Under the pieces are notes generated by a model. That model had not been told where the DNA came from and made no database searches. It was given only the letters and a program-made list of their open reading frames with translations. Below are positions 776 through 31,218 of a stretch of DNA of 64,000 nucleotides, in pieces (positions within the stretch are counted from its first letter, which is position 1; the number at the start of each line of letters is the position of its first letter). Made by a program: the position numbers and the translations under genes. Location of the stretch: IMG/VR virus record IMGVR_UViG_3300028364_000033, positions 1 to 64,000 of that record; one strand, written 5' to 3'. This stretch comes from a virus.

Positions 776-1071
776 TAAAGAATCTAATTTGTTTTCTAAT
801 TGTGTTTCTGTAATTTCAATTCCGTTTTCGTTATAAGTTGTCAGTTGTCATAATGTTTGTTTTAGTTTCGTTGATTACTTTCAACACTACAAATATAAGC
901 ATATACTTAACACTAACCTAATGTTTTTGCATTTATTTTCAGTTTATACTTAAACTTTAACATTTCGTTAGGTTTTGCTACGCAATTTACCATCGCTCGA
1001 AAAGAAAACTAAAAATAACGTACCTGTATAAAAAATCGTTTTAATGTTTTTTTATACAGGTACGTTATGTG

Positions 1072-7967: not shown

Positions 7968-8324
7968 TTACATTAATTTAGCACCATAAATATAAGCGTT
8001 TGGATTTACTTGTAAACCAAATTCTTCATGTTCACCAACCATAATCATAACTTCACTGGTGACACCTTTTATAACACTTGGCTCAAGGTTAACTATGAAT
8101 GGACATTGAATACCTATAAGAGATTCTGGTTCACTTGTTTTACCTAAATTAGTGAAAGCTGTTTTTGTTACCTCTTCACCATCTAAATCACCAAATTGAA
8201 CTGTTAATTTAATCCCATAACTTTTAGGTATACACTCAGCACCTATAATTAATCCAACTCTAATATCTAATTGTTTTGAAATTTCTAAAAATTTATCAAA
8301 ACTTATTTTTTCTTTAATTTCCAT
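7968..8324 (-). CDS. tRNA-binding domain protein (Trbp111/CsaA/EMAP-II-like OB fold)
   Basis: LDIRVGLIIGAECIPKSYGIKLTVQFGDLDGEE matches the tRNA-binding domain signature L-D-hRVG-I-E-E-HP-ADKL-V-VD-G. Confidence 0.6.
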   Translation of the reverse strand: MEIKEKISFDKFLEISKQLDIRVGLIIGAECIPKSYGIKLTVQFGDLDGEEVTKTAFTNLGKTSEPESLIGIQCPFIVNLEPSVIKGVTSEVMIMVGEHEEFGLQVNPNAYIYGAKLM

Positions 8325-8326
8325 AA

Positions 8327-8728
8327 TTATTCGTTTCCAAAAAGGTTAATATTTACTCCCATACTCTCCAATGATTCAAAAACCATTAAATTCCATTTAC
8401 CAAAGGAACCTAAATATAGGTCCTGATAAATACACCACTTAACAACATGAGGCTCATCGGTTGATATTTCACCACTCCAATCCTTTATGAGGTAAGTGTA
8501 CCCCATATAACCATCTCGATGCATACTGAAAACTTGTATGGCTGTTGACATGTCTACGTCTAACCCAGTTTCCTCTTTAACTTCCCTTATAATGGCGGAT
8601 TCCAATGATTCATCATCATCATCCACTTTTCCACCTGGAAGTCCCATATCATTATGGTCTTTTTTTCTGGAAACACCTAATACGTGACCAGTTTTATTTA
8701 ATAGTACAGCTTGAACAGTATATTTCAT
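8327..8728 (-). CDS. Nudix hydrolase
   Basis: Nudix box GLPGGKVDDDDESLESAIIREVKEETGL (Gx5Ex7REUxEExGU). Confidence 0.75.
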   Translation of the reverse strand: MKYTVQAVLLNKTGHVLGVSRKKDHNDMGLPGGKVDDDDESLESAIIREVKEETGLDVDMSTAIQVFSMHRDGYMGYTYLIKDWSGEISTDEPHVVKWCIYQDLYLGSFGKWNLMVFESLESMGVNINLFGNE

Positions 8729-9123
8729 TAGTATAATCTTAAACGTTTAGTTAATTTATCTATTTCGACCGATTTATTAGGTCCTATTGCAGCACACGTT
8801 ATCGTTGGGGTACCATTGAATTCCGTTCTACCCTTATCTATTATTACGTGAGCCTCAAGTCCAGCTTCTTTCGCTTTTTTAACTAAATTTAATAACTTAT
8901 CTTCACTATCTATTTTCAGACAAACTTTAGTATGACCTGTTTTTAACCAGTTAAGGGCATCATCGGACATATTCACATTATTTTTGTGTTTTCCCTGTGC
9001 CATGATTTGTTTTAATATAAATGACATGGAAACATGACTGACCTGGGCCGCAAGTTTACCGATACTCATGTCCAAATCTTTTCTAATTATTATAACTTGT
9101 TTAACTTCTGACATAATTTTCAT
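8728..9123 (-). CDS. peptidyl-tRNA hydrolase, PTH2 family
   Basis: KQVIIIRKDLDMSIGKLAAQVSHVS matches PTH2 core ([24 protein letters not shown]). Confidence 0.7.
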   Translation of the reverse strand: MKIMSEVKQVIIIRKDLDMSIGKLAAQVSHVSMSFILKQIMAQGKHKNNVNMSDDALNWLKTGHTKVCLKIDSEDKLLNLVKKAKEAGLEAHVIIDKGRTEFNGTPTITCAAIGPNKSVEIDKLTKRLRLY

Positions 9124-16739: not shown

Positions 16740-17852
16740 TTAATTCAAATACTTTAAAAAATTCTGTAATTCTAATTTTTTAATCATTCTACCCATTTCT
16801 GGACCAGCTTCAATACCTAACTTTTGAACCTCGGCACCACCAATTGATAATTCGAATTTTATAAATGACTCAAATAATTCAGTGTTTAAACCAACTAAGT
16901 TTGAGAATTTTCTAATCTGTTCGTCATTAACACCAGAATTATTCTGCATCTTCTTAAGTTCATATACATTGTTAACATTTAACATTGTTAGATTTACTAA
17001 GAAAACAATTCCCCTAATCTCATTGATGGAGTACGTCAATTTATTCAACTTACCGTTCAATTGTTTGGGGTCATTATTTCTTAACATGTATGCCAATAGA
17101 ACAGTTGGGTCCCTTTCCTCTTGAAAGTCAGTATCAACATTCTGTATATCCTTAAATATCCAATCTAATAGATTGTATTGATTTAGTAGCCCTAGGAAGT
17201 ATTTAATCGATTTAGCGGTCTTAATACCCTTTAAAAACTCGTCTCTAATCCTCTCAGATGATATTCCCTCTAAGCTGGCATCATTTGCGAGTGATTTTTC
17301 AGCATCAGCATCCAAATCTGAATTAAATCTACCAGCGAACCTAATTGCTCTAAGTATTCTAAGTCTATCTTCACCGAATCTATCATTGGCTGAACCAACG
17401 GTCCTAACAACTCGGTTCTTCAAGTCATCAATACCGCCAACAAGGTCAACAACCTCACCAGTTTCGATATCATAAAATAATGCATTGATTGTTAAATCCC
17501 TACGCATAACATCGGTATCAATATTCGTGAATTCAACAGAATTTGGTCTGCGGCCATCCGAACCTAAATCAGACCTAAATGTAGCGATTTCATATTCATC
17601 TGAATCGGTGAATACATTTATGACCCCAAAGCTTTTTCCAGTCCCTAATGTTCTAAGACCAGCGGTCTTCATCATATTCTCGACTATATCTGGTTTAGCA
17701 TCGGTAGCTAAATCCCAATCTTTTATTGACTTTTTAAGTAATGAGTCACGAACGGCACCACCGACAACAAATAGTTTATAACCATTGCTTACAAATATAT
17801 CCTTGATTTTTATAATGTCTTTTGGAACCTGTAAGTTAAATTTAACTCTCAT
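16740..17852 (-). CDS. cca: tRNA nucleotidyltransferase (CCA-adding enzyme / poly(A) polymerase head-domain family)
   Basis: FVVGGAVRDSLL...DWDLAT...GTGKSFGVINV...EIATFRSD and RRDLTINALFYD motifs diagnostic of class II CCA-adding enzymes. Confidence 0.85.
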   Translation of the reverse strand: MRVKFNLQVPKDIIKIKDIFVSNGYKLFVVGGAVRDSLLKKSIKDWDLATDAKPDIVENMMKTAGLRTLGTGKSFGVINVFTDSDEYEIATFRSDLGSDGRRPNSVEFTNIDTDVMRRDLTINALFYDIETGEVVDLVGGIDDLKNRVVRTVGSANDRFGEDRLRILRAIRFAGRFNSDLDADAEKSLANDASLEGISSERIRDEFLKGIKTAKSIKYFLGLLNQYNLLDWIFKDIQNVDTDFQEERDPTVLLAYMLRNNDPKQLNGKLNKLTYSINEIRGIVFLVNLTMLNVNNVYELKKMQNNSGVNDEQIRKFSNLVGLNTELFESFIKFELSIGGAEVQKLGIEAGPEMGRMIKKLELQNFLKYLN

Positions 17853-17871
17853 AATATTTTATATTTATACA

Positions 17872-17900
17872 AATATACATATAAATAATATAATAAACAA
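17872..17900 (-). promoter_or_regulatory. sigma70-type promoter (TTGTTT-N17-TATATT) upstream of cca gene
   Basis: same motif and spacing as other family members. Confidence 0.4.
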
Positions 17901-17909
17901 ATATTATTT

Positions 17910-18878
17910 TTAAGCTTTATAGGTTTTGTTTATTATATCACCTAAATCAACTTTTTTATCATTAACCTCTAATGCCAATATCTTTAATGGAGTATTTTTG
18001 AAAAGGGTAATTTCTTTTTCTTCTTCACCTAGGTTAGGGTCTATATTCGACTCTATGGTTTGTTCCCAGTTTATATATTTTTCACCAATGGCCGACTCAA
18101 TTCTAACAACATTGGATTCTTTACCGCCCCAATGTGCCTCGGCAGCATCTTTTTCAAATGACCAGAACACACCTAGTCTGTTACCAGTGTGAGGTAATCT
18201 ATCTAACCAATCATCATCTACCGTCATTACTCGCCAAAGTCTAATGTAACCATCTGGTGTAATTTTATGTTTTATATCATAGATTGCATCATCAATTTTA
18301 CTTTCGACCTCATATAACAACCATTTTTTAAATCGTTCCGTTTCTATTATATCATCCTCATCCATTAGTTCTTCTTTTTCTTCTGGTGATAGATAATAGT
18401 CGTCTTGCATTTTATACTTAAAATTTCCAACAACAGTACTTGGTGTGCTATTTAACCAATTTTCAGCTATACCTTCAATATTAAAGTCAGATGATGAAAT
18501 TGCCTTTATTGATTTTTCGGTAATCAGTGTTTCATTAACGCTAGTCAAATCACCCTGAATATCCTTGTGTTTAAATTTGGCACCTAAATCAGTTTTCATT
18601 GATGGTTTATATTGATATTCTGGGTTATCATTTTTTATATATTGCATCATTCTAGAAGCGTAACCCTTTCTTCTAAATTCTGGTCTAATAAATATATTAC
18701 TTACGGTTAATTCACCCTCAAAAAGGGTATATTGTGTTATACCTAGTATCTCTTCACCTAAATAAAATCCAAGTTCATAGTTGTGTTGTTCCCCATATGA
18801 ACTTAAATGTTCAACCTCATATCTAAATTTGGGTTTATCAACATTTTCCCTTAATAATTTTTTAATTAAGTATTTCAT
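17910..18878 (-). CDS. GNAT-family N-acetyltransferase domain protein with C-terminal extension
   Basis: NIFIRPEFRRKGYASRMMQYI resembles GNAT motif A (acetyl-CoA binding R/Q-x-x-G-x-G/A). Confidence 0.45.
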   Translation of the reverse strand: MKYLIKKLLRENVDKPKFRYEVEHLSSYGEQHNYELGFYLGEEILGITQYTLFEGELTVSNIFIRPEFRRKGYASRMMQYIKNDNPEYQYKPSMKTDLGAKFKHKDIQGDLTSVNETLITEKSIKAISSSDFNIEGIAENWLNSTPSTVVGNFKYKMQDDYYLSPEEKEELMDEDDIIETERFKKWLLYEVESKIDDAIYDIKHKITPDGYIRLWRVMTVDDDWLDRLPHTGNRLGVFWSFEKDAAEAHWGGKESNVVRIESAIGEKYINWEQTIESNIDPNLGEEEKEITLFKNTPLKILALEVNDKKVDLGDIINKTYKA

Positions 18879-20370
18879 CTTTATTTCTTAATTTTTTTCT
18901 AACCAACTTACCTATTAACCCCTCATAAACTTTGGTGTTTATAGTTTCAATTATTTCAGACTGTAATTTATCCAAATCATTAACTAAAACCCAAACTTTA
19001 CTATCGTTTTTTGTGTTAACCCTAACTGAGTCTTCTCGATGCCCATATTTATATTCATCGTAGAATTTTTCGTGTAGGGTCACCGCATCATCCTTTATTA
19101 TTATCTTACCGTCATAGGTTTCTATGGTGTCGTCATGAAATGCATGTGGTACTTCATAAAGTTCATTATCTATATCAACATAATCATCTTCCATAGTTAT
19201 ATATTGACCTTCACCGTAATGATTATATTCTAACTCTATGGTATCTTCAAATTTAGCATAATCACCCTCATAAACTCCTGCGGTTAATTCAACTATCATT
19301 TCATCATCATTATATTTAAACACCGTTTCATTATTGTATGTCTTTACACAATCGTCATCTAAGTAGAGTTCACCATCTATATGTATTATATTATCAGCGT
19401 GGGCATAACCCTCTATATAACCATTTGGTGTCTTATAAGATAGATAGTAAGCTTCATCTTCATTTACAATTTCACCCTGACGGTCTCCAAGTTCAATCAT
19501 TACACCAGGTTCTGAAACACCCCCATCAGTATCGGTTAACGCTACGGTTTCATAATTATCGTCACTATCGGTCATTAATTTACCATTATCTTTGTTTAGA
19601 TACTCAAATGTATCCATAAACGGATATTTTTCAAACTCCCAATAATCTAAATCCACCTCACCATTGGTGTTGGTTGTGAAACCATTTTCTTCCGCATATT
19701 GTAAGAATAAGTTTTTATATTCATTATTTGTTAAATAAACCCTATCCATAAATGTAACATCTTCCGATGTGTGCCATAATAATGCTCTACCACGAACCTT
19801 ATTGTTATTTGGATTAATTAATACCAGACACTTAACATGTTCTGGGTTTTCAGTATATATCTTAAGGTAGGCTTGTGCTGCCTCATATCGCATACATGAA
19901 CCCATTGTTTCACCTTCATCATAATTTTCACAGTGATAGGCCCATAATATTTTATCACCCTCAACAACCTTAAAGTCTTCGGTTGTACCCTTCTTTAAGT
20001 GGGCGATTAATTCCTCTAATTCATAACCCTTGAATTCTTGTGTACCAATACCTAAATAGTTCAATAATTTACCGACCTTGAATTTTCTAACCTTAGCATT
20101 ACCATCTCTATCTTTATAGTAACCCGTTAAAGTTTTATCATCGTCATCGGTGAAGTCTATAGAGTCTATAGTTACCTTATCTGATATACTATTTGAGTTT
20201 AAGAATTGTAATAACTTATCAGCAAATGGTTTATTAATATTATCTAATTTTTTTTTAAGTTTAGTACCTACCGAAATTTCCTTTTCAATTAATAAAGAAA
20301 GTTCTTCTAAAAGAATTCTTTTACTATATCCCTCGTTAAGTAACTTAACTATATACTTTTTATTGTTCAT
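18862..20370 (-). CDS. hypothetical protein, paralogous N-terminus to 20472..21617
   Basis: shares N-terminal MNNKKYIVKLLNEG with the neighbour (MDNKKYIVKLLREG) and a duplicated ~100-bp upstream cassette. Confidence 0.4.
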   Translation of the reverse strand: MNNKKYIVKLLNEGYSKRILLEELSLLIEKEISVGTKLKKKLDNINKPFADKLLQFLNSNSISDKVTIDSIDFTDDDDKTLTGYYKDRDGNAKVRKFKVGKLLNYLGIGTQEFKGYELEELIAHLKKGTTEDFKVVEGDKILWAYHCENYDEGETMGSCMRYEAAQAYLKIYTENPEHVKCLVLINPNNNKVRGRALLWHTSEDVTFMDRVYLTNNEYKNLFLQYAEENGFTTNTNGEVDLDYWEFEKYPFMDTFEYLNKDNGKLMTDSDDNYETVALTDTDGGVSEPGVMIELGDRQGEIVNEDEAYYLSYKTPNGYIEGYAHADNIIHIDGELYLDDDCVKTYNNETVFKYNDDEMIVELTAGVYEGDYAKFEDTIELEYNHYGEGQYITMEDDYVDIDNELYEVPHAFHDDTIETYDGKIIIKDDAVTLHEKFYDEYKYGHREDSVRVNTKNDSKVWVLVNDLDKLQSEIIETINTKVYEGLIGKLVRKKLRNKDEILN

Positions 20371-20407
20371 AAATGTAACTATATACGATAAATATACTCA
20401 AAACACG

Positions 20408-20436
20408 AAAAAACCCAATCATTTGATTGGGTTTCT
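20408..20436 (-). terminator. rho-independent terminator (AACCCAATCA..TGATTGGGTT plus T-run), copy 1 of a duplicated cassette
   Basis: perfect stem with T-run on minus strand. Confidence 0.55.
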
Positions 20437-20471
20437 AACTTTATATTATTTTTTTCGGAACTAATTTCATA

Positions 20472-21617
20472 TTAATGTATTGCTAGAAATGTTTTATGTA
20501 CATCCTGTCTTTGTGCACTGATATCAGTATCACCCGTTGGTAACACGATAACATCATATTGAAACTTTTCACCCTCGGTAGATGGTAGTTCTTTATGGTA
20601 TTTTAAGCGATTTATGTCTATATCATATTCTTTAGCAACTCTACGTCTAAGTTCTTCTTTACCACCATCAACGAAAATGGGTAACCCATCTTCATCTTTC
20701 TTATATGAGTTCGCTTTTGGGTAAAATAAACCCTTAAATAATTTTTTAGGTATGACATCGGAATACTTGGTTGTTTCCAAATCAACTTGTCTTAACTCTT
20801 TTGGTGCTGAACCCTTTGAGAAGTTCATAATAAAATCATCACTGGCCAGGTTTACGAATTTTGCCTGTTTAGTATATGCGTATGATTTTACATCGAATCC
20901 AGCATCGAACAAATCTTTAGTAACCTTTACTGCTATATCAAAATACTTTTGACTAAAGAAATCCCCAGCATCGTTCCATCTCATAACTAATTTTGGTACC
21001 GAACCGCTACGCCTACCTTGTCTTTTGAGTTTGAATGCCAATGGTTCCAATTCATCCATTATCATATTATAATATTCGGTGGGGTCGTTCATTAAAAGAT
21101 TAAGTCTTCTAATTAATTTTAATACCTTACCATCGTTCATACCATAAAACCCTTTTCTGGCATAACATATCAATTGACATGAGCCAGCACCTGGACATGT
21201 GTTTATATGGTAGAATTTTCCATTATCATTATCATATATAATTCCATTAATTGCTGGTAACCCAGTATTTACTGTCATTTGTTCACCACCATCATCCGAT
21301 TTCTCCATCTTTGGGTTTTGGTCAAATATAGTCTTTGGTGGGGTGGTGATTAACTTTTTAAATTTTGCAACATCTAACTCACCATCGGCAGTTAGATTTT
21401 TTTCCATTTGGTTCCTAGTATAAATAACATCCTTGGTTCCACGCTTATCCCTATCCTTGGATGCTAGGTTTAGTCTACCCAATTCCTTATTCATATCATC
21501 AGCTAACGATTGTGGTGTAACACACTTAGCTTGTGTATCCGAAAAATCACCCTCCCAATCAACTTCATTGATTGGACCTTCTCTAAGTAATTTAACTATG
21601 TATTTTTTATTATCCAT
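20472..21617 (-). CDS. hypothetical protein (paralog family with 18862..20370)
   Basis: ORF track; CPGAGSCQLICYARKG motif; no confident family. Confidence 0.4.
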   Translation of the reverse strand: MDNKKYIVKLLREGPINEVDWEGDFSDTQAKCVTPQSLADDMNKELGRLNLASKDRDKRGTKDVIYTRNQMEKNLTADGELDVAKFKKLITTPPKTIFDQNPKMEKSDDGGEQMTVNTGLPAINGIIYDNDNGKFYHINTCPGAGSCQLICYARKGFYGMNDGKVLKLIRRLNLLMNDPTEYYNMIMDELEPLAFKLKRQGRRSGSVPKLVMRWNDAGDFFSQKYFDIAVKVTKDLFDAGFDVKSYAYTKQAKFVNLASDDFIMNFSKGSAPKELRQVDLETTKYSDVIPKKLFKGLFYPKANSYKKDEDGLPIFVDGGKEELRRRVAKEYDIDINRLKYHKELPSTEGEKFQYDVIVLPTGDTDISAQRQDVHKTFLAIH

Positions 21618-21653
21618 AAATGTAACTATATACGATAAATATATTCAAAACAC

Positions 21654-21682
21654 AAAAAACCCAATCATTTGATTGGGTTTCT
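21654..21682 (-). terminator. rho-independent terminator, copy 2 of the duplicated cassette
   Basis: near-identical to 20408-20436. Confidence 0.55.
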
Positions 21683-21702
21683 AAATTTATATTATAATTA
21701 TC

Positions 21703-22614
21703 TTATTTTTTTTCGGAACCTATTTCACCACTTAATAGTTTTGCACCTATAATTGATTCAAATATACCTAACTCTCCACCACCTTTAGTTTGTGTACCAC
21801 CGTTGAACATAGTAGTCGGTAGGGTTAATCCGTTTGGTCCTGATAGTGCTTTAACTCTAGCAACACTCGCATCCAATTCCATTTGTAAGCGTGTTTCTGG
21901 AGTAATACCAGCACTAACTTTTCTTTGGATTTCATACGCTTCTGCATCGGCTGTTACTCTAATCCTTTCGGCAGACTTTAATGATGCGGCAAGTAGATTG
22001 GTTTCCTCTTGTTCTTTATAGGAGGCTTCTTTAGCTCTAGTATCTGCCGCAATGGTAACTTCAAGTTGTTTCTTTTCTAATATAACCCTAGTTTCAGCTT
22101 TTTCACGTTCACCCTTTGCAATTGCTTTTTGGGTTGCGTAGTATTCTTTTTCAGCTTCTTGTTTCTCTAATTGGGTTTGCGCAACTTGCTCTTTTTGGTC
22201 ATTAAGTCTTTCGTCAAAACTATCTTCCCAATCGATATTGGTAACTGCCGCTTGCTGTACGGTTATACCGTATTTTTTAAGTGAGTTTGATGTGTCCCTT
22301 ACAGGTTCACCAGCTGAGTTGGTCCTAATTCTATATTTCTTTTCACGTTTTTCATTATTTATTCTTCCAATTGCTACTGTTCTAGTGGAATCCGAAGTAA
22401 CGATAGGTGTTTCGATTATATCTTCATAAACTTCTTCTGTTAAGTACATTCCATTCTCCATTTGGTCTTTTAAGTAGTAATCGAATTGTGAGGAAGCACC
22501 TGAAATATAATCTTGGGCATCCATTAACTTACATGTGTTTTTTAAAGCTTGGTCATATACTGGGTATACACGGGCATAAACTAACTTAGCTTCGGACCTG
22601 TTTTTATCGGCCAT
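21703..22614 (-). CDS. SPFH/band-7 (prohibitin/HflC-like) domain protein
   Basis: long charged coiled-coil EKQEAEKEYYATQKAIAKGEREKAETRVILEKKQLEV typical of SPFH C-terminal region; adjacent membrane partner. Confidence 0.45.
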   Translation of the reverse strand: MADKNRSEAKLVYARVYPVYDQALKNTCKLMDAQDYISGASSQFDYYLKDQMENGMYLTEEVYEDIIETPIVTSDSTRTVAIGRINNEKREKKYRIRTNSAGEPVRDTSNSLKKYGITVQQAAVTNIDWEDSFDERLNDQKEQVAQTQLEKQEAEKEYYATQKAIAKGEREKAETRVILEKKQLEVTIAADTRAKEASYKEQEETNLLAASLKSAERIRVTADAEAYEIQRKVSAGITPETRLQMELDASVARVKALSGPNGLTLPTTMFNGGTQTKGGGELGIFESIIGAKLLSGEIGSEKK

Positions 22615-22728
22615 AATTAAAAAGCCCTCTGTATCTGCGTAATCTATTGATACGATTAATGATGCTGCAATATCAGCTTTAATCGCATCGGCAAATTCTC
22701 TCCTTTGTGCCGTTCTGTAATAAATACC

Positions 22729-23133
22729 TTATTCCCTTACGGTTTCGATAATATTCCCTTCCCTATCTCTTTGTGGAATTAAATCCTGTAGGGCTATTTC
22801 AAATGAAATGGGTATAGTTTTACCCCAATACTTTAATTTAAGTCCCTGTGTCGAGATTGCATTATCACCACCCCAAAGATATTGTACGGCAGTTGCAGTA
22901 CCAGATTTATTGATGAAGAATAGACCACTAATAGTCATAATCAATATTCCACCAACAATTGAAAGTACTGTTTTTTTAAGGGTCCATGAAGTTAAGAATT
23001 TTGGATGTGCTTTTTCGATGGTACTACCATAAGTAGTTTTTCGTTCAACGTCCTCTGTTCTTAGGTTCATAAACCTAGTTGTTACATACATCGCAACTGC
23101 AAAAATAATAGTTAAAATACCTAATGTTGTCAT
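22729..23133 (-). CDS. membrane protein (2 TM), putative partner of SPFH protein
   Basis: N-terminal and central hydrophobic helices. Confidence 0.4.
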   Translation of the reverse strand: MTTLGILTIIFAVAMYVTTRFMNLRTEDVERKTTYGSTIEKAHPKFLTSWTLKKTVLSIVGGILIMTISGLFFINKSGTATAVQYLWGGDNAISTQGLKLKYWGKTIPISFEIALQDLIPQRDREGNIIETVRE

Positions 23134-23201
23134 AATTTTTCTTTTTTATTATTAATAATTTTATTAATCTGGTGCAAATATAAACTTCTTTTATTTAATA
23201 A

Positions 23202-24221
23202 TCAAGTATTTTTACCTAAATCCAATAACATATCATAAACTTTTTTAACTAAATCTAATAACGTACCATCATTTTCAATGACATAATCCCATTTTTTATA
23301 CTTATCCAACTCTATTTCGGATTTATGTGGTTTACTGTTAAAATCACCTAATTGTTGAATGCATGTGCTGGAAAATACTCTATTATTAAATTCACTTAGT
23401 GTTATTAATTCTTCACCCCAAGAGTATGTAAAGTTTTTTCTATCCCAACCGTCTGGGTCCATTATAATAATTTTAGGGAATTGTTTTTGCCATTCCTCAG
23501 AAGTTCTTTTGCTTCTATTTACCCTAATTCTAACACCCTTAAATTTTTCTATGGTGTCAACTTCGTTATTAAACCTAACATCGGTTATAATCCACCTAGG
23601 GTATTCAAAGCCACCTATTGCGTGGTCGGTATGTATTGGTGTAAAATCACTGAATAAACTATTTACCCAAATATTTGGGTGAATGATTTCCCTACCACAT
23701 TCAGTACCCAATAACTGTAATAATAACCTTGGGGTCATTTTTACCCTATATACGTGTGTAGTGTTATTTAATTTATGTTTTTTAATAAATTTGTTGGCTT
23801 CTTTTTCACTAACAAATATCCCACTATCGACCAAAGAGGTGCCGTCATTTATTTCATTGGTGTGGCCAATTTTAAAAACATCCCAAATATCAGCCAATTC
23901 CTTCTCCTTAAATTCTCTATCCTCTAACCTTTTTCTAGTACACCCTAATATAAGGCAAGCAATGTCTTTAAGTTTATCTGCGAATTTTTTATTTAAGTAT
24001 GTCTCTTCACCATACCACTCCGACCCATTGACTACTCTTTTTATTAATTCAAGGTCATTTAACATTTCATATCCTAAACTACCATGTATTTCATTCGTGT
24101 TTGGATACCTACCCCTGGTCATGAATGCTTGTATAATTCTTTCTACGGTATCCTTTCCAGAACCCACCTTACCACTAAGACCTATTAAGTTAGGTACTTT
24201 ATTGAAATTAATTTTTTCCAT
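23202..24221 (-). CDS. 1: deoxynucleoside monophosphate kinase (T4 gp1-like) with C-terminal extension
   Basis: LIGLSGKVGSGKDT (T4 gp1 LIFLSGVKRSGKDT), RLLLQLLGTE (T4 RRLMQALGTD), WVNSLF (WVKLF), IITDVRF (IVPDTRQ), IENDGTL (ITNDGSL). Confidence 0.75.
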   Translation of the reverse strand: MEKINFNKVPNLIGLSGKVGSGKDTVERIIQAFMTRGRYPNTNEIHGSLGYEMLNDLELIKRVVNGSEWYGEETYLNKKFADKLKDIACLILGCTRKRLEDREFKEKELADIWDVFKIGHTNEINDGTSLVDSGIFVSEKEANKFIKKHKLNNTTHVYRVKMTPRLLLQLLGTECGREIIHPNIWVNSLFSDFTPIHTDHAIGGFEYPRWIITDVRFNNEVDTIEKFKGVRIRVNRSKRTSEEWQKQFPKIIIMDPDGWDRKNFTYSWGEELITLSEFNNRVFSSTCIQQLGDFNSKPHKSEIELDKYKKWDYVIENDGTLLDLVKKVYDMLLDLGKNT

Positions 24222-24239
24222 ATTTATTTATTTAAAACA

Positions 24240-24268
24240 AATATAGTATTTTTTTTCCATAAGTTCAA
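24240..24268 (-). promoter_or_regulatory. sigma70-type promoter TTGAAC-N17-TATATT upstream of dNMP kinase gene
   Basis: conserved family motif and spacing. Confidence 0.45.
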
Positions 24269-24337
24269 GCAAAAAAAAGACCCACCATGAATATGATGAG
24301 TCTTTGGAGGCAAGATAAAAATACGTTAAACCTAAAA

Positions 24338-24389
24338 CGTCACAGATAATATCTTATTAATTATAATTAATAAGATATTATCTGTGACG
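24338..24389. repeat. 52-bp perfect palindrome (25-nt arms, 2-nt centre)
   Basis: cgtcacagataatatcttattaatt-at-aattaataagatattatctgtgacg read directly. Confidence 0.9.
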
Positions 24390-24464
24390 CATGCGTTAAT
24401 CTTTTAGTCACCTAATTTAGGTGTGCAACAACCACTACGTGCAAGTAGATTAACTTCGGTTGTT

Positions 24465-24502
24465 TAGCGGGGGGAGGATTCGAACCTCCGACCTCTGGGT
24501 TA
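24465..24502 (-). tRNA. initiator-type tRNA-Met(CAU), 3' exon (positions 36-73)
   Basis: TAA-CCCAG-AGGTC-GGAGG-TTCGAAT-CCTCC-CCCCGCT-A; pairs with 5' part at 25242-25276. Confidence 0.6.
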
Positions 24503-25241
24503 TATTAATTATTTATTATCATACTCCCAATGATGGTTAGGGCATAATCCCATTAGGTTTGATAATAAATTTATTTCTCCTATTGTTGTAAATCCATCAA
24601 ATTCTGAAACGGCTTTTATGTGAGCCACTTCAACATGATTTAAATAACCACAATTTGCACAACTTGGTGAAGGGTTAGATTCAAAAAACACACTCCTAGC
24701 GTGTTTTTGGATGGCACTCCTTGCGGATTGCCAATTTTTACGTTTGTTAAAGAGTTCATCTTTTGTTAAAGAAGATATACCTATTGATTTGATTAATTTT
24801 AGCTCCACACCTAACATTGAGCATCGTCTTTCAATAGAATCCTTCACATCTGAAGAAACTTTACTTTTGTATCCTAATTTTTCACCAATTTCCTTCCACC
24901 CTTTAGAATTATTTATAATAAAAATAAAATTAATGTCAGATATTTTATTAATTAAACTATCTTTTCTATAGCCAACGTGACTAAAATTTTCATTTTTATT
25001 AACTTTTCTTCGTGTTGGTAAGGAAATTTCCAATTTCTTTGCCGCTTTTTTAATAGCGTTTCCAGAAACGTTATACAATTTACCAATAGCAGTATAACTT
25101 TTATTCTGCTCTAAAATTAATCTTTCTAAATCTTTCTTATTATATTTATCCACACTAATAAATAGTATGAAAAGATATAAACGAACCTAATCCCTAAAAA
25201 TTAATTTTAGTTCGAATATTTTTCAGTCTTTTAAAACTGTG
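24503..25241 (-). mobile_element. 739-bp insertion in the anticodon loop of tRNA-fMet carrying an HNH endonuclease gene (intron-like, non-canonical)
   Basis: lies between anticodon-loop position 35 and 36; ORF fills ~88% of the insertion; no G at the 3' boundary. Confidence 0.55.
24509..25153 (-). CDS. HNH homing endonuclease
   Basis: C-terminal CANCGYLNHVEVAHIKAV...LCPNHHWEYD HNH/Zn motif; N-terminal HTH-like region. Confidence 0.7.
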   Translation of the reverse strand: MDKYNKKDLERLILEQNKSYTAIGKLYNVSGNAIKKAAKKLEISLPTRRKVNKNENFSHVGYRKDSLINKISDINFIFIINNSKGWKEIGEKLGYKSKVSSDVKDSIERRCSMLGVELKLIKSIGISSLTKDELFNKRKNWQSARSAIQKHARSVFFESNPSPSCANCGYLNHVEVAHIKAVSEFDGFTTIGEINLLSNLMGLCPNHHWEYDNK

Positions 25242-25276
25242 TGAGCCCAGCGAGCTGGCCACTGCTCCACCCCGCA
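25242..25276 (-). tRNA. initiator-type tRNA-Met(CAU), 5' exon (positions 1-35)
   Basis: TGCGGGG-T-G-GAGC-AGTGGCCA-GCTC-G-CTGGG-CTCA; matches E. coli tRNA-fMet position by position, including GGG/CCC in the anticodon stem and a 1:72 mismatch. Confidence 0.6.
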
Positions 25277-25350
25277 ATGTGTCTTTTAATTAGGTTTTTC
25301 ACCTATTAACTATGGTGGGTTTAAAAGTTTTGTTTATTATATATAGTACA

Positions 25351-25379
25351 AATATAGTAAATGTTATTCTTTATGTCAA
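25351..25379 (-). promoter_or_regulatory. sigma70-type promoter TTGACA-N17-TATATT upstream of split tRNA-fMet
   Basis: minus-strand CTTGACAtaaagaataacatttacTATATTtg. Confidence 0.5.
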
Positions 25380-25688
25380 GTTTTTTTTACTTTTTTTTTC
25401 AATTAATGCATAATCATCAGCATATTCTTCAATTATGACATAAATAGTGTGGTTTTTATCAATATTATGTACAACATTCACAACCCTATAGTATTTTAGT
25501 TCATCCACTAAATACACTATTTCATGTATTCTTGGTATTGCTTTAACTGAAACATCAGTTTTTACTATCTTCCAAGATTCGTTAAGAAATGTAACCTTAT
25601 GCTTTTTAAACATCATATATTGTTTATATAAAAATACTAATATTAAAAAAAAAATAAATAGAAACACTTTATTTTTATAAATAAACAT
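25371..25688 (-). CDS. hypothetical membrane protein (N-terminal TM)
   Basis: ORF track; FLFIFFLILVFLY hydrophobic segment; overlaps predicted promoter, so uncertain. Confidence 0.3.
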   Translation of the reverse strand: MFIYKNKVFLFIFFLILVFLYKQYMMFKKHKVTFLNESWKIVKTDVSVKAIPRIHEIVYLVDELKYYRVVNVVHNIDKNHTIYVIIEEYADDYALIEKKSKKNLT

Positions 25689-25828
25689 ATTTATTAGTAT
25701 ATAACAATTAATTAAAATATAAAGATAATGGGCTGTGGATGCAAGAAGAATAAACCGAAACCTACTAATACTACCGTTAAGACGAGTTCACCAGTTAGAA
25801 CCGTTAATAAACCGACTAGTAAGTAAAA

Positions 25829-25858
25829 AAATAAAGCCAGAATTATCTGGCTTTATTA
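25829..25858. terminator. bidirectional terminator hairpin AAAGCCAGA-ATTA-TCTGGCTTT
   Basis: 9-bp stem; T8 on minus strand. Confidence 0.55.
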
Positions 25859-25862
25859 ATTA

Positions 25863-26123
25863 TTATTGATTATCTTTATTGGATTCATCAGTAATACTTT
25901 GTTTTGTTTTTGAGAAACCTCTTACTACCGAAACACCTAACATAGTCGCTGAAAAAATTAATAAAGATTCAAACATGTCTATGTTTACACTAATAAATGT
26001 AAACATATCCAATAAAAAAGCAATACAACATAAAACACCGCTGGCTAGCCCCATTGTTTTTTTAGACGAGTATTTATTGTCGTCCTTATCTTCTGTGAAG
26101 ATATCTTTAATAAATTCCTTCAT
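25863..26123 (-). CDS. small membrane protein
   Basis: ORF track; GLASGVLCCIAFLLDMFTFISV hydrophobic. Confidence 0.4.
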   Translation of the reverse strand: MKEFIKDIFTEDKDDNKYSSKKTMGLASGVLCCIAFLLDMFTFISVNIDMFESLLIFSATMLGVSVVRGFSKTKQSITDESNKDNQ

Positions 26124-26204
26124 AATAATTTGTTTAATTATAAATACTTTATAATATTAAAAAAGCCCCCAAAAGGAGGCTTAAAAAAACAAATTCAAAA
26201 GAAT

Positions 26205-26663
26205 TTACTCAACACTAACTAATTCCAAATCAAAAACCAAATCTTTTCCAGATAGTGGATGGTTAGCATCCAATAATGCTGAATTTTCTTTAACTTCAAC
26301 TACAACAACGGTCATTTGTTGACCCTGAGCATTTTGAGTGTGTAATACTTGACCAGCGGCAACTGTTTCTGGTAGGTATTGTTTTTCTACTTCTTGTATA
26401 AGTTCTTCTCTTGGTTGTCCGTAAGCCTCGTCACAAGTTATTGAAACTGTTTTAACCTCACCTTCGGACATTCCTTGAAGAGCTTTTTCAAACCCTGGGA
26501 TTAATTTTCCCTCACCAAGAACAACTTCAAGTGGTTCTTTAGTTTCAAAGTTATATCCTTCAACGGCTTTTGAAGAATAAAATACTTGCCCATCAACAAA
26601 TTTACCTGTATAATGAACTTTAATTTTACTGTTTTCTACTACTAATTTACTATTTTCTGACAT
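26205..26663 (-). CDS. FKBP-type peptidyl-prolyl cis-trans isomerase (SlyD-like with IF insert domain)
   Basis: KVHYTGKFVDGQVFYSS...PLEVVLGEGKLIPGFEKALQGMSEGE matches FKBP core. Confidence 0.75.
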   Translation of the reverse strand: MSENSKLVVENSKIKVHYTGKFVDGQVFYSSKAVEGYNFETKEPLEVVLGEGKLIPGFEKALQGMSEGEVKTVSITCDEAYGQPREELIQEVEKQYLPETVAAGQVLHTQNAQGQQMTVVVVEVKENSALLDANHPLSGKDLVFDLELVSVE

Positions 26664-26693
26664 AATTTTAATTTTTTTAAATCTTATACTTCA

Positions 26694-26722
26694 AATATAG
26701 TATTTTAAAATCATAATGTCAA
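26694..26722 (-). promoter_or_regulatory. sigma70-type promoter TTGACA-N17-TATATT upstream of FKBP gene
   Basis: minus-strand CTTGACAttatgattttaaaatacTATATTtg. Confidence 0.5.
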
Positions 26723-26759
26723 GTTTAAAACAAAAAAAACATTAGATGTAAATAATATT

Positions 26760-27146
26760 TTAACTTAACACATATTGAAAATTTTTAGGTAATTCAGATA
26801 TTTTTATTAATTTCGATTTGACATATGGTAAATTATGTTTTATTGATTTTTGTACCCTATGATTTCCATCTAATATGTATTTAAATTGATTGTTATCATT
26901 AACGATAATTAAAACAGGGTATTGTAAATCAGATTTTTCTATTTTTTCAATTTCATCTGTATTTCCATCCCAATTTAATACTATTTTCGATAGTTTTTGC
27001 GTTGGAATATTTTTGATTGGAGTATCTTTTGTTAAATAAAGTAATTGTTTTAGTGTTACAGTAACAGCACCATTTACCCACTTATCTCCCAACCCTTCGT
27101 TTATATATTTTTTAAGCGAACCTTTAATGATTTTTTTTAAATTCAT
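26760..27146 (-). CDS. hypothetical protein
   Basis: ORF track. Confidence 0.35.
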   Translation of the reverse strand: MNLKKIIKGSLKKYINEGLGDKWVNGAVTVTLKQLLYLTKDTPIKNIPTQKLSKIVLNWDGNTDEIEKIEKSDLQYPVLIIVNDNNQFKYILDGNHRVQKSIKHNLPYVKSKLIKISELPKNFQYVLS

Positions 27147-27203
27147 AATTTATTTTTAAATAAATATTTGTAAATTAATTTTATAATTCTACTTTAATAA
27201 AAA

Positions 27204-27225
27204 AACCCACTAAAAGTGGGTTTTT
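27204..27225. terminator. bidirectional terminator AACCCAC-TAAAA-GTGGGTT
   Basis: 7-bp stem with A-run/T-run flanks. Confidence 0.5.
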
Positions 27226-27235
27226 AAAAGTGGAC

Positions 27236-27330
27236 GTTATGGGAGTCGAACCCATGTCTTACAAACTCTTCAAAAGATTTCTAGAAGTTTAGGTCATAAT
27301 TTATCAAACTATCCGAAATTCTTCCTTACT
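27236..27330 (-). tRNA. tRNA-like element with canonical T-arm (ATGGG-TTCGACT-CCCAT); acceptor not resolved, possibly interrupted or degenerate
   Basis: T-loop signature and a family promoter 285 nt upstream; cloverleaf not completed by eye. Confidence 0.3.
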
Positions 27331-27614
27331 TTTATAGTGGTTTTGGTCCCACTCATAGATTACCATGATTAATAGATTACTATTATTTGGTGATTTATCA
27401 CCATCAACATTAAATTAGGCTAATGCTACCTCTCCCATACCAACACCCAAGGTGGCGGTATCTAGGAAATTTTTGTCAATGTCAAACTCGTTGCCATTTA
27501 AAAAGTGTTTGATAGTGATTTTAGGAGCTTCCAATCTAACTCCACTTCCTTACTAATTACGAATATCCATAATCAATTCCGTAAAACGCCCAATTGTTTT
27601 AATAAATATATACA

Positions 27615-27643
27615 AATATAGTGAAAAACATTTAATAATTCAA
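27615..27643 (-). promoter_or_regulatory. sigma70-type promoter TTGAAT-N17-TATATT
   Basis: family motif; drives tRNA-like element downstream. Confidence 0.4.
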
Positions 27644-27649
27644 GGTTTA

Positions 27650-27985
27650 TTAAAAATATATTATATAAATATCTTTTCCTTGTAATTTAGCCTTATTAAT
27701 TGAATCAGCCGTGCCATTCGATTTTAAATCCCAACAAGCCACTATCACTTCACCTTCATCAATAATTAATTGATTTCTTATGAATCCAGCCGATTTATTA
27801 TATTTTGCCCAATCTGGTAAATGAATACTTTTTTCTATACCATTATCATCCGCATACTTTTCACCCAATGAATCAGCACCAAGTGCGCCACCCGATATAA
27901 TTTTAGTAGGCTTAAGTGCATCCAATATCATCTTAAGCCTATCAAAATCTTTAAAGGTTCTACTACCTATTACGGAAACAACCAT
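27650..27985 (-). CDS. SLOG/DUF2493-like (DprA/LOG-related Rossmann) protein
   Basis: IGSRTF...IISGGALGADSLGEKYA pattern of SLOG family. Confidence 0.4.
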   Translation of the reverse strand: MVVSVIGSRTFKDFDRLKMILDALKPTKIISGGALGADSLGEKYADDNGIEKSIHLPDWAKYNKSAGFIRNQLIIDEGEVIVACWDLKSNGTADSINKAKLQGKDIYIIYF

Positions 27986-28698
27986 TAGGCAGCTTTATTT
28001 ATAATAATACCATCGATGATACCATAATTTAAAGCTTCTTCTGATGTCAACCATTTATCTCTATTACAATCGATAAGAACTTCTTCTTTTGTTTTGTCGC
28101 AGAAACTAGCTAACATTTCAAATAATATTTCATTATACTTATCAGCTTGCTCTAGGGATATTCTCATATCCGCAACATGGCCTTCCGCACCACCAGAAAC
28201 TTGGTGTAACATCACTTTACTATGTTTAAGGCTAAATCTCTTACCCTTGGTCCCATTACCCAATAGGATTGAACCCATTGATGCTGCCATACCAGTATTG
28301 ATTGTTGCTATATCGGATGAAACATAATTCATAACATCTACCATGGTTAAACCAGCCTTTACGCTTCCACCTGGAGAATCGACATGCATCGTTATATCGT
28401 TTGTTTCTAGGTTATCCAAGAACATTAATTGTGCGGCTACAACATTACTCATATTATCGTTAACAACACCAGCGACCCATAAAATTCTATCCATCATCAT
28501 TCTGGAGAAAATATCAAGCTGTGTAACACGTAGTTCCCTCTCTTCTAATATATATGGTGTCATACTACCCATTGGTACCCCAATGGTTTGTACGTTACTA
28601 TATAATGTCTTTTGTAAATTTTCCCACGATTGGAGTTGCATTCCACTTATACCCATATGCCCTATAGCATATTTTTTAAATTCTCCGTAATAATCCAT
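27985..28698 (-). CDS. ClpP-family (S14) serine protease
   Basis: MHVDSPGGSVKAG (ClpP IDSPGGSV), GMAASMGS (active-site Ser), MLHQVSGG (His). Confidence 0.7.
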   Translation of the reverse strand: MDYYGEFKKYAIGHMGISGMQLQSWENLQKTLYSNVQTIGVPMGSMTPYILEERELRVTQLDIFSRMMMDRILWVAGVVNDNMSNVVAAQLMFLDNLETNDITMHVDSPGGSVKAGLTMVDVMNYVSSDIATINTGMAASMGSILLGNGTKGKRFSLKHSKVMLHQVSGGAEGHVADMRISLEQADKYNEILFEMLASFCDKTKEEVLIDCNRDKWLTSEEALNYGIIDGIIINKAA

Positions 28699-28702
28699 AT
28701 TT

Positions 28703-29386
28703 TTATTTTTTAATTTTAAACCATTTTTTAAATTTATGGTTATTTAATCTATATTTTACAGTACTTCTATTTATGTTAAGTTTTTTAGTAGCTTCTTTTA
28801 TGGTATCATATTCAACACCATTTATAGAAACTTTCTGAGCTTTTGGATTGTTCTCAACCATAAATTTAGAATGTTCTGGCGACTTACGACCACTCATAGA
28901 TTTAGCTATTTTTTCTTTAGTCTCATTACTATGTGGAAACCCACCTCTATTTTTAGTACCTTTACCTATATTTTCCCTATGCTCCTTAGTAAAAAACTTA
29001 GCCTTGGCAGAGTCGCTCATTTTTTTCTTTGTTTCTTTACTAAAGACCCTACCTTTTAATTTTTTAGACTGTTTTAATCTAATTTCTTTTAATTCTTCAT
29101 CTGTTTTATCATAAACCCAATGATTACCGCCCTCGCCACCTTTAGTCGAATTATAACCATCATTAAACGAGTTTTCTAATTTAATATAATAAATTTCCTT
29201 ATCATTTAAATTATTATCATTTATATCATCTTCAAGTATAACCCTATCAAATATAATTGCACCATGAACTTTAGCTATTCTATTAGGGACTAATCCAGAT
29301 GACCAATAATCTTTTTTTTTATCATTATGTTTTCCAACATATTTTTTACCATTTCTCTTATCTATTAACATATATATGTAACCCAC
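28703..29386 (-). CDS. GIY-YIG homing endonuclease (Seg-like) with NUMOD-like repeats and C-terminal HTH
   Basis: MGYIYMLIDKRNGKKYVGKH GIY-YIG; repeated SKETKKKMS/SNETKEKIAKSMSG; INGVEYDTIKEATKKLNINRSTVKYR. Confidence 0.7.
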   Translation of the reverse strand: MGYIYMLIDKRNGKKYVGKHNDKKKDYWSSGLVPNRIAKVHGAIIFDRVILEDDINDNNLNDKEIYYIKLENSFNDGYNSTKGGEGGNHWVYDKTDEELKEIRLKQSKKLKGRVFSKETKKKMSDSAKAKFFTKEHRENIGKGTKNRGGFPHSNETKEKIAKSMSGRKSPEHSKFMVENNPKAQKVSINGVEYDTIKEATKKLNINRSTVKYRLNNHKFKKWFKIKK

Positions 29387-29548
29387 ATTAAAGTATTTAT
29401 ATAATAAATATATCCAACATTAGTTAAGAGAACAAGTTATAGCGAATTTTTCCCAATAATGTAATTGCATGCTGCTAATCCCCATGTGGTTATTAGCATA
29501 TTTTTTAAATTCATTATAAAAATCTAACATATAAATTTATTTTTTAAA

Positions 29549-29773
29549 TTAATATTCATCGGTATATATGAATACTGGGGAATACTCACCTAACCAAGCT
29601 CCTGAAACATTAAAATTATAATATTCTAAAGCTTCATCTTGTGTCATACCACCTTCTGTAAGTATTTTTATTATTTTACTGGCATCATAGGCAACAACTG
29701 GTCCGAAATTAATTCTTTCGGCCATACCAATTATTGCCTCTGAATTATAATAAGCAACTTCATCAATACCCAT
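29549..29773 (-). CDS. hypothetical protein
   Basis: ORF track. Confidence 0.3.
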   Translation of the reverse strand: MGIDEVAYYNSEAIIGMAERINFGPVVAYDASKIIKILTEGGMTQDEALEYYNFNVSGAWLGEYSPVFIYTDEY

Positions 29774-30192
29774 TATACCTCAGCTCCGTTCTTTTCAACA
29801 CTGAAAAGAGTTCTAATACTTTCTTGAAGAACTTCGTAGTTATCATACCCATACTTTGATAGAACCCCAGAAAATGTTTTAATATCCTCTTGTGTGATAA
29901 TTAACTTATCTTTATCCATATCATAATGGATTCCAGCAATAACTTCATCGGCAGCCATAACTTGTTGCTCTTCCGTTAATTGTTCAAATATATTTTCATT
30001 TACGAAGATATATACATCATTTTTAGTCTCATACTTAACTAAATCATTTGCTCTAACCGCTTTAGCCACTACTTTTTTAAGGCTGTTATCAGTTAAGACT
30101 TTAATAGTTACGTGAGCATTAAGTTCTGCTTTTTTAATAACTCCTTCAAAAATTTCCAATGTATCCTCAAAAGGATTTTCGTACTTAGCCAT
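29773..30192 (-). CDS. hypothetical protein
   Basis: ORF track. Confidence 0.35.
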   Translation of the reverse strand: MAKYENPFEDTLEIFEGVIKKAELNAHVTIKVLTDNSLKKVVAKAVRANDLVKYETKNDVYIFVNENIFEQLTEEQQVMAADEVIAGIHYDMDKDKLIITQEDIKTFSGVLSKYGYDNYEVLQESIRTLFSVEKNGAEV

Positions 30193-30220
30193 AATTTACT
30201 TTTTTTAATTAATTAATAAT

Positions 30221-30451
30221 TTATTTTTTAATGAATTTAAATATTTCAATACCGACATCTTTTAAAAAATTTATAATAATGACTGATGTGAATAGTAGTA
30301 CATAAATTGTTACTGGTAACCATAACGGTAAAAAAACCGAATACCAAGACCAATGTTCTACTGAACCAATACCAACCAATTTCATAAATAGAAAAATTAT
30401 AAATAATAAGATTCCTAATCCAATACTACCAGTTTTAAAATATTCCTTCAT
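30221..30451 (-). CDS. small membrane protein (2 TM)
   Basis: ORF track; hydrophobic. Confidence 0.35.
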   Translation of the reverse strand: MKEYFKTGSIGLGILLFIIFLFMKLVGIGSVEHWSWYSVFLPLWLPVTIYVLLFTSVIIINFLKDVGIEIFKFIKK

Positions 30452-30558
30452 TAATTTCGTTTGTACAAATATACTATTAATTAATTATAGATGCAAGGTA
30501 TTTCAAAAATCATTTAACCACATATTTACATATAACATTAAAAACGTATATTATACCT

Positions 30559-31218
30559 ATGTATAGAGTCATTTTAACGATAAATAATAGATATAAAAAA
30601 ACACTTCACCGAAGTAAAACTAAAGAAGCATCTTTTGATAACTTTAGGAGGTTAATCGATGAGAACAATAATGTTATATTCCCAAAACAATATACAAATA
30701 GTCATGGTATAAATAAGATTAAATATAAGATATTGGTGGTTAAGGATAAGGAAGATTTTGATGAAAATCGAACACTCAGAGATGGTTTGGGTAAGCTTTA
30801 TATTGAAAAACCGATATTTGATTTATGGACGGTACTTAGTGACAGTGATTATGAAATAGAGGAAACTTTTTGGATGTATGGTCGGGACCCAGTATTTGAT
30901 AGGGTTACGATTCATGAAATACTTAAACCAATGATGTTACACGCCTATAAGAAAACAACGGTAAAACAGTTGATAGTAGTTAACAATAAACTTGTTCTAT
31001 ATAATGAAGACCAATTTGAGATGGTTATATGTAAGTGCAAGAAAGATGCTCAAAGACTACACCACGCTTTAGCTAAGGCGTGTAGTAAGAATAAAATTAA
31101 GAGTATAATATTTATGGGTACAGCTTCCAAGGCAACAATACCACAAATGTATAGTATCATTCTTGAAAACACGGATTGGAGCATTGAAAAGATAAGGAGA
31201 ACGAGTACCAGACCCTAA
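30559..31218 (+). CDS. hypothetical protein (plus strand)
   Basis: ORF track; convergent with 31220..31492. Confidence 0.4.
   Translation: MYRVILTINNRYKKTLHRSKTKEASFDNFRRLIDENNNVIFPKQYTNSHGINKIKYKILVVKDKEDFDENRTLRDGLGKLYIEKPIFDLWTVLSDSDYEIEETFWMYGRDPVFDRVTIHEILKPMMLHAYKKTTVKQLIVVNNKLVLYNEDQFEMVICKCKKDAQRLHHALAKACSKNKIKSIIFMGTASKATIPQMYSIILENTDWSIEKIRRTSTRP

Follow-up and report, generated by a model that had tools for sequence, protein, structure and literature searches.

Phages N15, PY54 and phiKO2 each possess, normally beside the protelomerase gene, a telomere-resolution site (telRL) that consists of one perfect palindrome, ~42-56 bp long, between unrelated flanks. At the RNA level, perfect duplexes of more than 22 bp are expected substrates of RNase III, and cleavage at an RNase III-type hairpin would detach the trailer of a tRNA; the RNase III sites known from phages are conserved and have internal loops or bulges that direct single cuts. 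The 3' end of tRNA genes is, in addition, a classic target of integration. The locus described here, from a 64,000-nt stretch of viral DNA (hereafter the window), carries a perfect palindrome in the trailer of a split initiator tRNA gene. This palindrome is real and statistically striking and, biologically, modest, being a lineage-specific long hairpin of a general kind that is already known.

The palindrome and its transcription unit

On the plus strand, positions 24338-24389 read CGTCACAGATAATATCTTATTAATTATAATTAATAAGATATTATCTGTGACG, a 52-bp sequence identical to its own reverse complement. The original prediction had described 25-nt perfectly complementary arms around a central 'at'; the perfection was confirmed, but the central 'at' is itself self-complementary, so that the arms measure 26 nt and the spacer is 0. 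In an inverted-repeat scan of the 64-kb window the second-longest perfect arm was 14 nt, while the maximum arms in 40 first-order Markov simulations of the window were 10-12 nt, and a chance origin is excluded by this rarity. The half-site, with up to three mismatches, occurs in the window at this locus only (0 expected). The flanks (...CTAAAA / CATGCG...) contain no direct repeat abutting the arms, that is, no target-site duplication at this place. Two motifs flanking the palindrome, GTTAAAC and GTTAATC, were considered as integron attC-like boxes and rejected, being direct and not inverted repeats as judged by eye.

Twenty public contigs encode the dNMP kinase whose gene adjoins the palindrome. 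Nine places, fetched from JGI, ENA and Logan samples, all belong to one phage population with 0-1 differences (SNP) per 7 kb, a clonality because of which variation gives no reading of selection. The palindrome was identical in all seven contigs spanning the site, which derive from different samples and assemblers, and an assembly artefact is ruled out. MEGAHIT and JGI contigs read through it uninterrupted. Four Logan contigs from four sequencing runs (L022, L023, L033 and L034) terminate within it, two starting at 24367 and two ending at 24360, i.e. 3-4 nt beyond the centre from either side. The possibility that these are physical DNA ends was rejected, since the first 31-mer lying wholly inside the palindrome mirrors another 31-mer there and a k=31 de Bruijn graph must therefore branch at exactly 24360 and 24367. 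The breaks are thus assembler artefacts, and they constitute an independent, read-level confirmation that the palindrome is perfect over at least 32 bp. For assembly in general the lesson is practical, in that a perfect palindrome exceeding k will interrupt a k-mer assembly, and will do so at positions that can be foreseen.

All genes of the locus, and nearly all ORFs of the window, lie on the minus strand. In the direction of that strand the order is a promoter (25379-25348), the tRNA-fMet 5' exon, a 739-nt insert, the 3' exon, two small hairpins, the palindrome, a terminator, a second promoter (24268-24237) and the dNMP kinase gene (Table 1). The 'family promoter' invoked by the original prediction proved real: the pattern TTGnnn-N16-18-TATATTTGT is present in 10 copies, 10/10 on the minus strand, among them those at 25379 and 24268. 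The distances given there were likewise accurate, with tRNA position 73 (24465) lying 76 nt from 24389 and the -35 element of the next promoter (24268) lying 70 nt from 24338. The terminator at 24305-24276 is orthologous to one that directly follows the tRNA in relatives. A promoter reading of GTCACA-17-TATAAT, which occurs in both directions, was discarded; it does not match the TATATTTGT -10 element of the family, and its minus-strand copy would run into the terminator.

Table 1. Coordinates of the features of the palindrome locus and of tRNA-like loci in the window.
Feature	Position	Strand	Basis and remarks
Family promoter TTGACA-N17-TATATTTGT	25348..25379	-	11/12 match; predicted to drive the tRNA/HNH unit through the palindrome
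tRNA-fMet 5' exon, positions 1-35	25242..25276	-	Cloverleaf fold of joined exons
Intervening sequence, 739 nt, in the anticodon (between positions 35 and 36)	24503..25241	-	HNH ORF 24509-25153; HNH_2, 1.4e-5; absent in L026
tRNA-fMet 3' exon, positions 36-73	24465..24502	-	Cloverleaf when spliced; matches phage tRNA 3' halves; intact ortholog in L026
Lineage-specific segment, 154 nt	24312..24465	-	Boundaries +/-3 nt, GCT/GCC microhomology; two small hairpins and the palindrome
Insert hairpin 1	24427..24464	-	AACAACCG...GGTTGTT, inner CTAC/GTAG; minimum-free-energy and centroid structure
Insert hairpin 2	24409..24423	-	CACCTAAATTAGGTG; fold prediction
Palindrome	24338..24389	-	52 bp; minus-strand RNA gives a 24-bp AU-rich hairpin with a 4-nt loop
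U-rich tail TTTTAGGTTT	24328..24337	-	Directly 3' of the hairpin on the transcribed strand
Canonical intrinsic terminator	24268..24305	-	13-bp stem 24305-24276, then T8; -14.5 kcal/mol; aligned with L025, L026, L027
Family promoter TTGAAC-N17-TATATTTGT	24237..24268	-	For dNMP kinase; kept in relatives
dNMP kinase gene, 339 aa	23202..24221	-	PF21448, 9.4e-11
tRNA-like loci (four ARAGORN, one Rfam only)	10429-10503, 10571-10663, 13000-13080, 14534-14605, 12369-12426		

The tRNA at 24465-25276 (minus strand) is of the initiator type, with a CAU anticodon, three G-C pairs in the anticodon stem and a 1x72 mismatch. The HNH-encoding insert interrupts it within the anticodon, and the joined exons give a clean cloverleaf. 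No Rfam group I match was obtained for the 739-nt insert even at E<=10, and its only possible junctions lack the usual exon-terminal U and intron-terminal G. A split counterpart occurs in L025 (5108-5918) and an intronless allele in L026 (829-902); the natural target of the HNH enzyme is the anticodon loop of the intronless tRNA, as found in L026, and not the palindrome. At pair 7-66 the window has G7-C66, L026 has A7-U66, and L025 has a hybrid G7-U66 in which a window-like G7 faces its own U66. L025 has therefore probably received the insert and its 5' flank from a window-like donor, and its hybrid tRNA suggests recent homing. With the conversion tract apparently ending at the 3' exon, the palindrome would not have been co-transferred. 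The splitting of an initiator tRNA anticodon by an HNH insert is more interesting biology than the palindrome nearby. T4 Rnl1-like RNA ligases are also encoded by the phage.

The window has ~30% G+C, and with contigs of up to 161 kb its source looks like a large phage. It contains 13 tRNA or tRNA-like genes and a tmRNA. Four of the tRNA-like genes are called by ARAGORN with no identity assigned and with 2-nt 'anticodons', yet score 41-48 bits with the Rfam tRNA model, and one 58-nt Rfam tRNA match was not called by ARAGORN; the anticodon loops of these odd genes may be unusual, or the genes may be tRNAs in decay. A set of genes for RNA and translation maintenance (27228-27591, 16740-17852, 4408-5538 and 7968-9123) comprises the tmRNA, a CCA-adding enzyme, an Rnl1-like RNA ligase, a PTH2 peptidyl-tRNA hydrolase, a NUDIX protein and tRNA-binding-domain proteins, while an intein-containing RNA ligase and a DNA ligase are located just beyond the window (L028, 15904-18870). 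A primase and both GIY-YIG and HNH homing endonucleases are also encoded. The stretches 45628-46458 and 47250-50505 encode an SbcC-like protein and a factor of the sigma-70 family with regions 1.2, 2 and 4; the sigma factor may read the TTGnnn-N17-TATATTTGT promoters, and a 340-aa ORF after the SbcC-like gene, with no Pfam match, is a possible SbcD partner. One variant segregates in the population (L028 12584-14459 versus L029 5162-7595), with two cytosine DNA-methylase genes in one contig and unrelated small ORFs in the other.

Folding of the palindrome and the long hairpins of this phage

Folded as RNA, the 52 nt give a stem of 24 pairs without interruption and a loop of 4 nt (-31.3 kcal/mol, z -12.8; -34 kcal/mol with flanks), the fold of the whole trailer having a z of -8.95; as single-stranded DNA they form a hairpin of -22 kcal/mol. 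A terminator scan flags the hairpin with CGTTTTAGGT as terminator-like, and the stem-loop stands where an intrinsic terminator is expected, on the minus strand beyond the 3' end of the tRNA, with promoter 25379 and the hairpin having no other terminator between them. The stem of intrinsic terminators is G+C-rich and ~5-14 bp long, whereas that of the palindrome extends over 24-26 bp, its G-C pairs being confined to the CGTCACAG base and its core nearly all A-U. The tail UUUUAGGUUU, with 4 contiguous U and 7 U in 10 nt, passes the loose rule of the scan, typical U-tracts having ~5-8. For RNase III, double-stranded RNA of at least ~20-22 bp in a transcribed region is needed, and the palindrome would offer 24 uninterrupted pairs in a region whose transcription is predicted from promoter and strand. 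Searches of Rfam at the gathering threshold and at E<=10 yielded sub-threshold generic hairpin matches only (mir-2329, 32.3 bits vs 90; trpB, 33.5 vs 59; Spot_42, 25.6 vs 80).

One of the original proposals was that the palindrome acts as RNA, forming a 25-bp duplex that would be an RNase III-type processing site or a strong terminator for the tRNA/HNH transcript. The anatomy agrees with these options, the palindrome lying on the transcribed strand, after a promoter and a tRNA, and being followed by UUUU.

The statement that the palindrome is far longer than the local terminators holds, as typical stems there are of 10-13 bp, with one exception at 1015-1068 (minus strand). This hairpin, an analogue within the same genome, has 26-nt arms with 2 mismatches, a 2-nt spacer and -25.8 kcal/mol. 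It begins 3 nt past the stop codon of ORF 1072-1356, has TTTTTAGTTTTCTTTTC (UUUUUAGUUUUCUUUUC) directly after it and is the sole terminator candidate of that gene. The TTTT(T)AG tail is common to both hairpins, and their shared build, long and AU-rich with a UUUU(U)AG tail, points to a use of such hairpins in the terminator position in this phage. At the orthologous sites of L039 and L040 only the first ATAAC(GT) is shared with the hairpin at 1015-1068, and a different hairpin or none is present, from which it follows that long hairpins turn over quickly.

Distribution among relatives and in sequence collections

The search for further copies covered the window and 20 kb fetched beyond both ends, ~84 kb of the ~160-kb genome. 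Other copies, a search for which the original prediction had suggested, were not encountered: neither the palindrome, nor its half-site with up to six mismatches, nor the 154-nt insert recurs in this portion. Partial AT-rich matches at 36345 and 30395 were dismissed as low-complexity chance. Scans for exact matches gave 0 throughout, whether for the palindrome arms in IMG/VR, for the 20-mer of the half-site in the JGI contig collection, the GTDB genome set and IMG/VR, or for the 20-mer of hairpin 2 in IMG/VR. A looser dyad, GTCACAGATAAT-N20-40-ATTATCTGTGAC, retrieved two matches (L037 and L038), whose likeness to the palindrome was judged to be chance, as they have only the imposed 12 nt in common with it and occur in unrelated, higher-GC or eukaryote-like contexts. 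The two hairpins (L037 10971-11022 and L038 7154-7205) mutually share GTCACAGATAATTG(A/G)CAG beyond the imposed 12 nt, and one of them comes from a contig series numbered near the JGI samples of this phage.

No close relative was present in the phage GenBank set or in IMG/VR. Among 50,697 phage records, megablast with 23500-25500 as the query retrieved nothing, and blastn of 24200-24520 against phage records matched the tRNA 3' half alone. Relatives were retrieved by protein search and contig look-up as a graded series, and five were compared (L024/L025, L036, L035, L027 and L026). The palindrome and the segment 24312-24465 are missing in 5/5 of them. L024/L025, with a dNMP kinase of 72% amino acid identity, is a mosaic of this phage and has the same HNH insert. 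Compared with positions 16552-31000 of the window, L024, from a co-occurring phage, shows successive blocks of 99.9, 88.9, 99.2 (26740-24466), 87.2 (24311-21576) and 95.3% identity, whose boundaries fall at the edges of genes or RNA genes, one coinciding precisely with the 3' end of the tRNA. In L025 the 154-nt segment is lacking, and TCCA, the terminator and the promoter come straight after the tRNA. The alignment blocks of L024/L025 stop at 24466 and resume at 24311, and the 154-nt gap opens immediately past tRNA position 72, shows GCT/GCC microhomology of 2-3 nt and falls where the 99% identity block gives way to the 87% one. The trailers of L036, L027 and L026 (dNMP kinase 61, 54 and 53%, respectively) are ~30-45 nt long and contain small unrelated hairpins, the tRNA-Met of L026 being intact and intronless; in L035 (60%) the tRNA is wholly absent at the corresponding position. 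At more distant dNMP kinase loci from IMG/VR (L001-L014) no long hairpin was found upstream of the kinase gene, and three short ones (13-14-nt arms) occur elsewhere in L004 and L009. Derivation of the insert from a duplicated tRNA leader was also tried and rejected, the local alignment score being 17 against a shuffle mean of 18.7.

Absence from close relatives had been named beforehand as refuting the original prediction, and it was found, with flanks of 87-99.9% identity, so that no reading built on a conserved function is supported. This applies also to the proposed conserved operator, recombination site or homing-endonuclease target, against which stand the relatives that do without the palindrome, the lack of further copies in the portion searched and the location of the HNH target elsewhere.

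Origin and role, and comparison with known systems

The reading that we favour, at roughly even odds (about 0.5), takes the palindrome for a young inverted duplication, single-copy and confined to one lineage, that serves in RNA as an auxiliary terminator and 3'-end stem and is a plausible substrate of RNase III. The perfection of the palindrome, including a centre whose symmetry is not called for in an RNA loop, together with its position at a recombination joint, argues for a recent origin at the DNA level, and perfection is best explained in this way rather than by long-term selection. The inverted duplication would have arisen during replication or the repair of a break, template switching and snap-back synthesis being the candidate mechanisms, within the 154-nt insertion in the 3' trailer of the tRNA-fMet/HNH unit, at the joint between the 99% and 87% blocks. 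Read-through from promoter 25379 would transcribe it, and the RNA is predicted to fold into a 24-25-bp AU-rich hairpin followed by UUUU, which might act as an extra, upstream intrinsic terminator and as a stem protecting the 3' end ahead of the ancestral terminator. A cut by RNase III in this perfect duplex of more than 22 bp could release the trailer of the tRNA. Against the auxiliary-terminator part count the tract of only 4 U and the few G-C pairs of the stem, and with a canonical terminator 30 nt downstream termination at the palindrome is redundant.

The main rival, which we regard as possible at best, is that the insertion is a young and neutral by-product, an inverted duplication or filler left at a recombination or repair joint beside a homing-endonuclease site, whose folding as RNA is inconsequential because the ancestral terminator still acts. 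Its absence from all five relatives, its place exactly at the 99%/87% boundary with 2-3 nt of microhomology, its single copy and a perfection consistent with youth all agree with this, and L025 functions with the terminator straight after the tRNA. Yet full inertness is unlikely for a hairpin of -31 kcal/mol that is followed by UUUU in a transcribed trailer, and at a terminator position elsewhere the same phage has a second hairpin of great length. Symmetry right through the centre would also suit recognition of the DNA by a dimeric protein, and a site acting at the DNA level (an operator for such a protein, part of an origin as a cruciform or DNA-unwinding element, or a target of recombination or of a nuclease) would be in keeping with the AT-rich core, the -22 kcal/mol DNA hairpin, the location at a mosaic joint, and the several homing endonucleases and the SbcC-like protein of the phage, next to which a candidate SbcD partner is encoded. 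We consider it unlikely. Neither a repeated half-site nor a second operator exists in the 84 kb, cumulative GC skew has no inflection at the palindrome, a close relative that lacks it argues against an essential cis site, and the HNH target is the intronless tRNA. Repressor operators are, furthermore, short dyads (~14-20 bp), usually repeated and overlapping a promoter, whereas the palindrome, at 52 bp, far exceeds known operators, is single-copy and is separated from promoter 24268 by a terminator. A more specific version, in which the palindrome is a programmed DNA hairpin or cruciform, extruded or arising on the lagging strand, cut by the SbcC-like nuclease with its candidate SbcD or by a structure-specific resolvase and thereby seeding recombination-dependent replication and exchange at the tRNA/HNH joint, has a slim chance of being correct; it would make the palindrome a self-made recombination hotspot acquired by one lineage.

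Since the 154-nt segment starts exactly at the 3' end of the tRNA, after position 72, and the palindrome could represent a pair of terminal inverted repeats lying end to end, a miniature mobile element or its remnant (a MITE, a REP, a PATE-like sequence or the scar of an integrative element targeting tRNA 3' ends) was also weighed. This is quite improbable: apart from the two chance matches, no related copy was found in the window and 20 kb, in IMG/VR, in the GTDB genome set or in JGI contigs, inspection of the distal boundary by eye revealed neither a target-site duplication nor a directly repeated tRNA 3' end, and no integrase or transposase was seen nearby. We attach the least credence to a telomere-resolution site of the telRL type, cut by a protelomerase to give linear DNA with hairpin ends. 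The palindrome has the anatomy of the sites of N15, PY54 and phiKO2, being perfect, unique in the sequence examined, within the ~40-60 bp range of such sites and bordered by unrelated flanks. However, no protelomerase was detected among the neighbouring and large window ORFs (Pfam, PHROGs) or in precomputed Pfam calls for the extra 20 kb, a partial coverage of the ~160-kb genome; the palindrome is not conserved, being missing from L024/L025 despite flanks of 87-99.9% identity; MEGAHIT and JGI contigs cross it, the Logan breaks being fully explained by k=31 branching; and the genes examined are mostly for tRNA and RNA repair, with a phage sigma factor and no lysogeny module seen.

If the favoured reading of a young inverted duplication with an auxiliary RNA role is true, its import is small, adding one more long intergenic hairpin to those of phages and showing mainly how fast perfect hairpins emerge at mosaic recombination joints. 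The import would be greater if the palindrome had a role at the DNA level (programmed breakage, or an origin) or in an RNase III-dependent maturation of a CCA-less phage initiator tRNA.

Among known systems, protelomerase sites differ from this locus in that no protelomerase gene is adjacent to the palindrome or present in the scanned parts of the 84 kb, and the phage is of a different type. REP, MITE and PATE sequences are likewise short, intergenic and able to form perfect hairpins, but those are multi-copy families, whereas the palindrome is single-copy in the examined portion of the genome and in the collections searched. With the RNase III hairpins of phages (those of the T7 R1.1 type, of the lambda sib/nutL region and of T4 species 1 RNA in its tRNA cluster) it has in common at least two helical turns of uninterrupted double-stranded RNA beside a tRNA in what is predicted to be a primary transcript of the phage; it differs by its uninterrupted stem and lack of conservation in relatives. 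Intrinsic terminators, including the tandem ones after stable-RNA genes, resemble it as hairpins of the transcribed strand followed by a U run, after an RNA gene and before the next promoter. It departs from them in its 24-26 bp AU-rich stem and 4 U, the other terminators of this phage having G+C-cored stems of 10-13 bp, in its symmetry through the loop, and in its redundancy with a conserved canonical terminator. Template switching is documented (e.g. PMC10710096, PMC7202029) as creating perfect hairpins de novo. A single arm or imperfect precursor, from which such template-switch (quasipalindrome-type) mutations would have started, is retained in no relative examined, which leaves this origin a candidate; the palindrome nevertheless resembles their products in being a spacerless, perfect inverted copy, recent, non-coding and placed at a repair or recombination joint.
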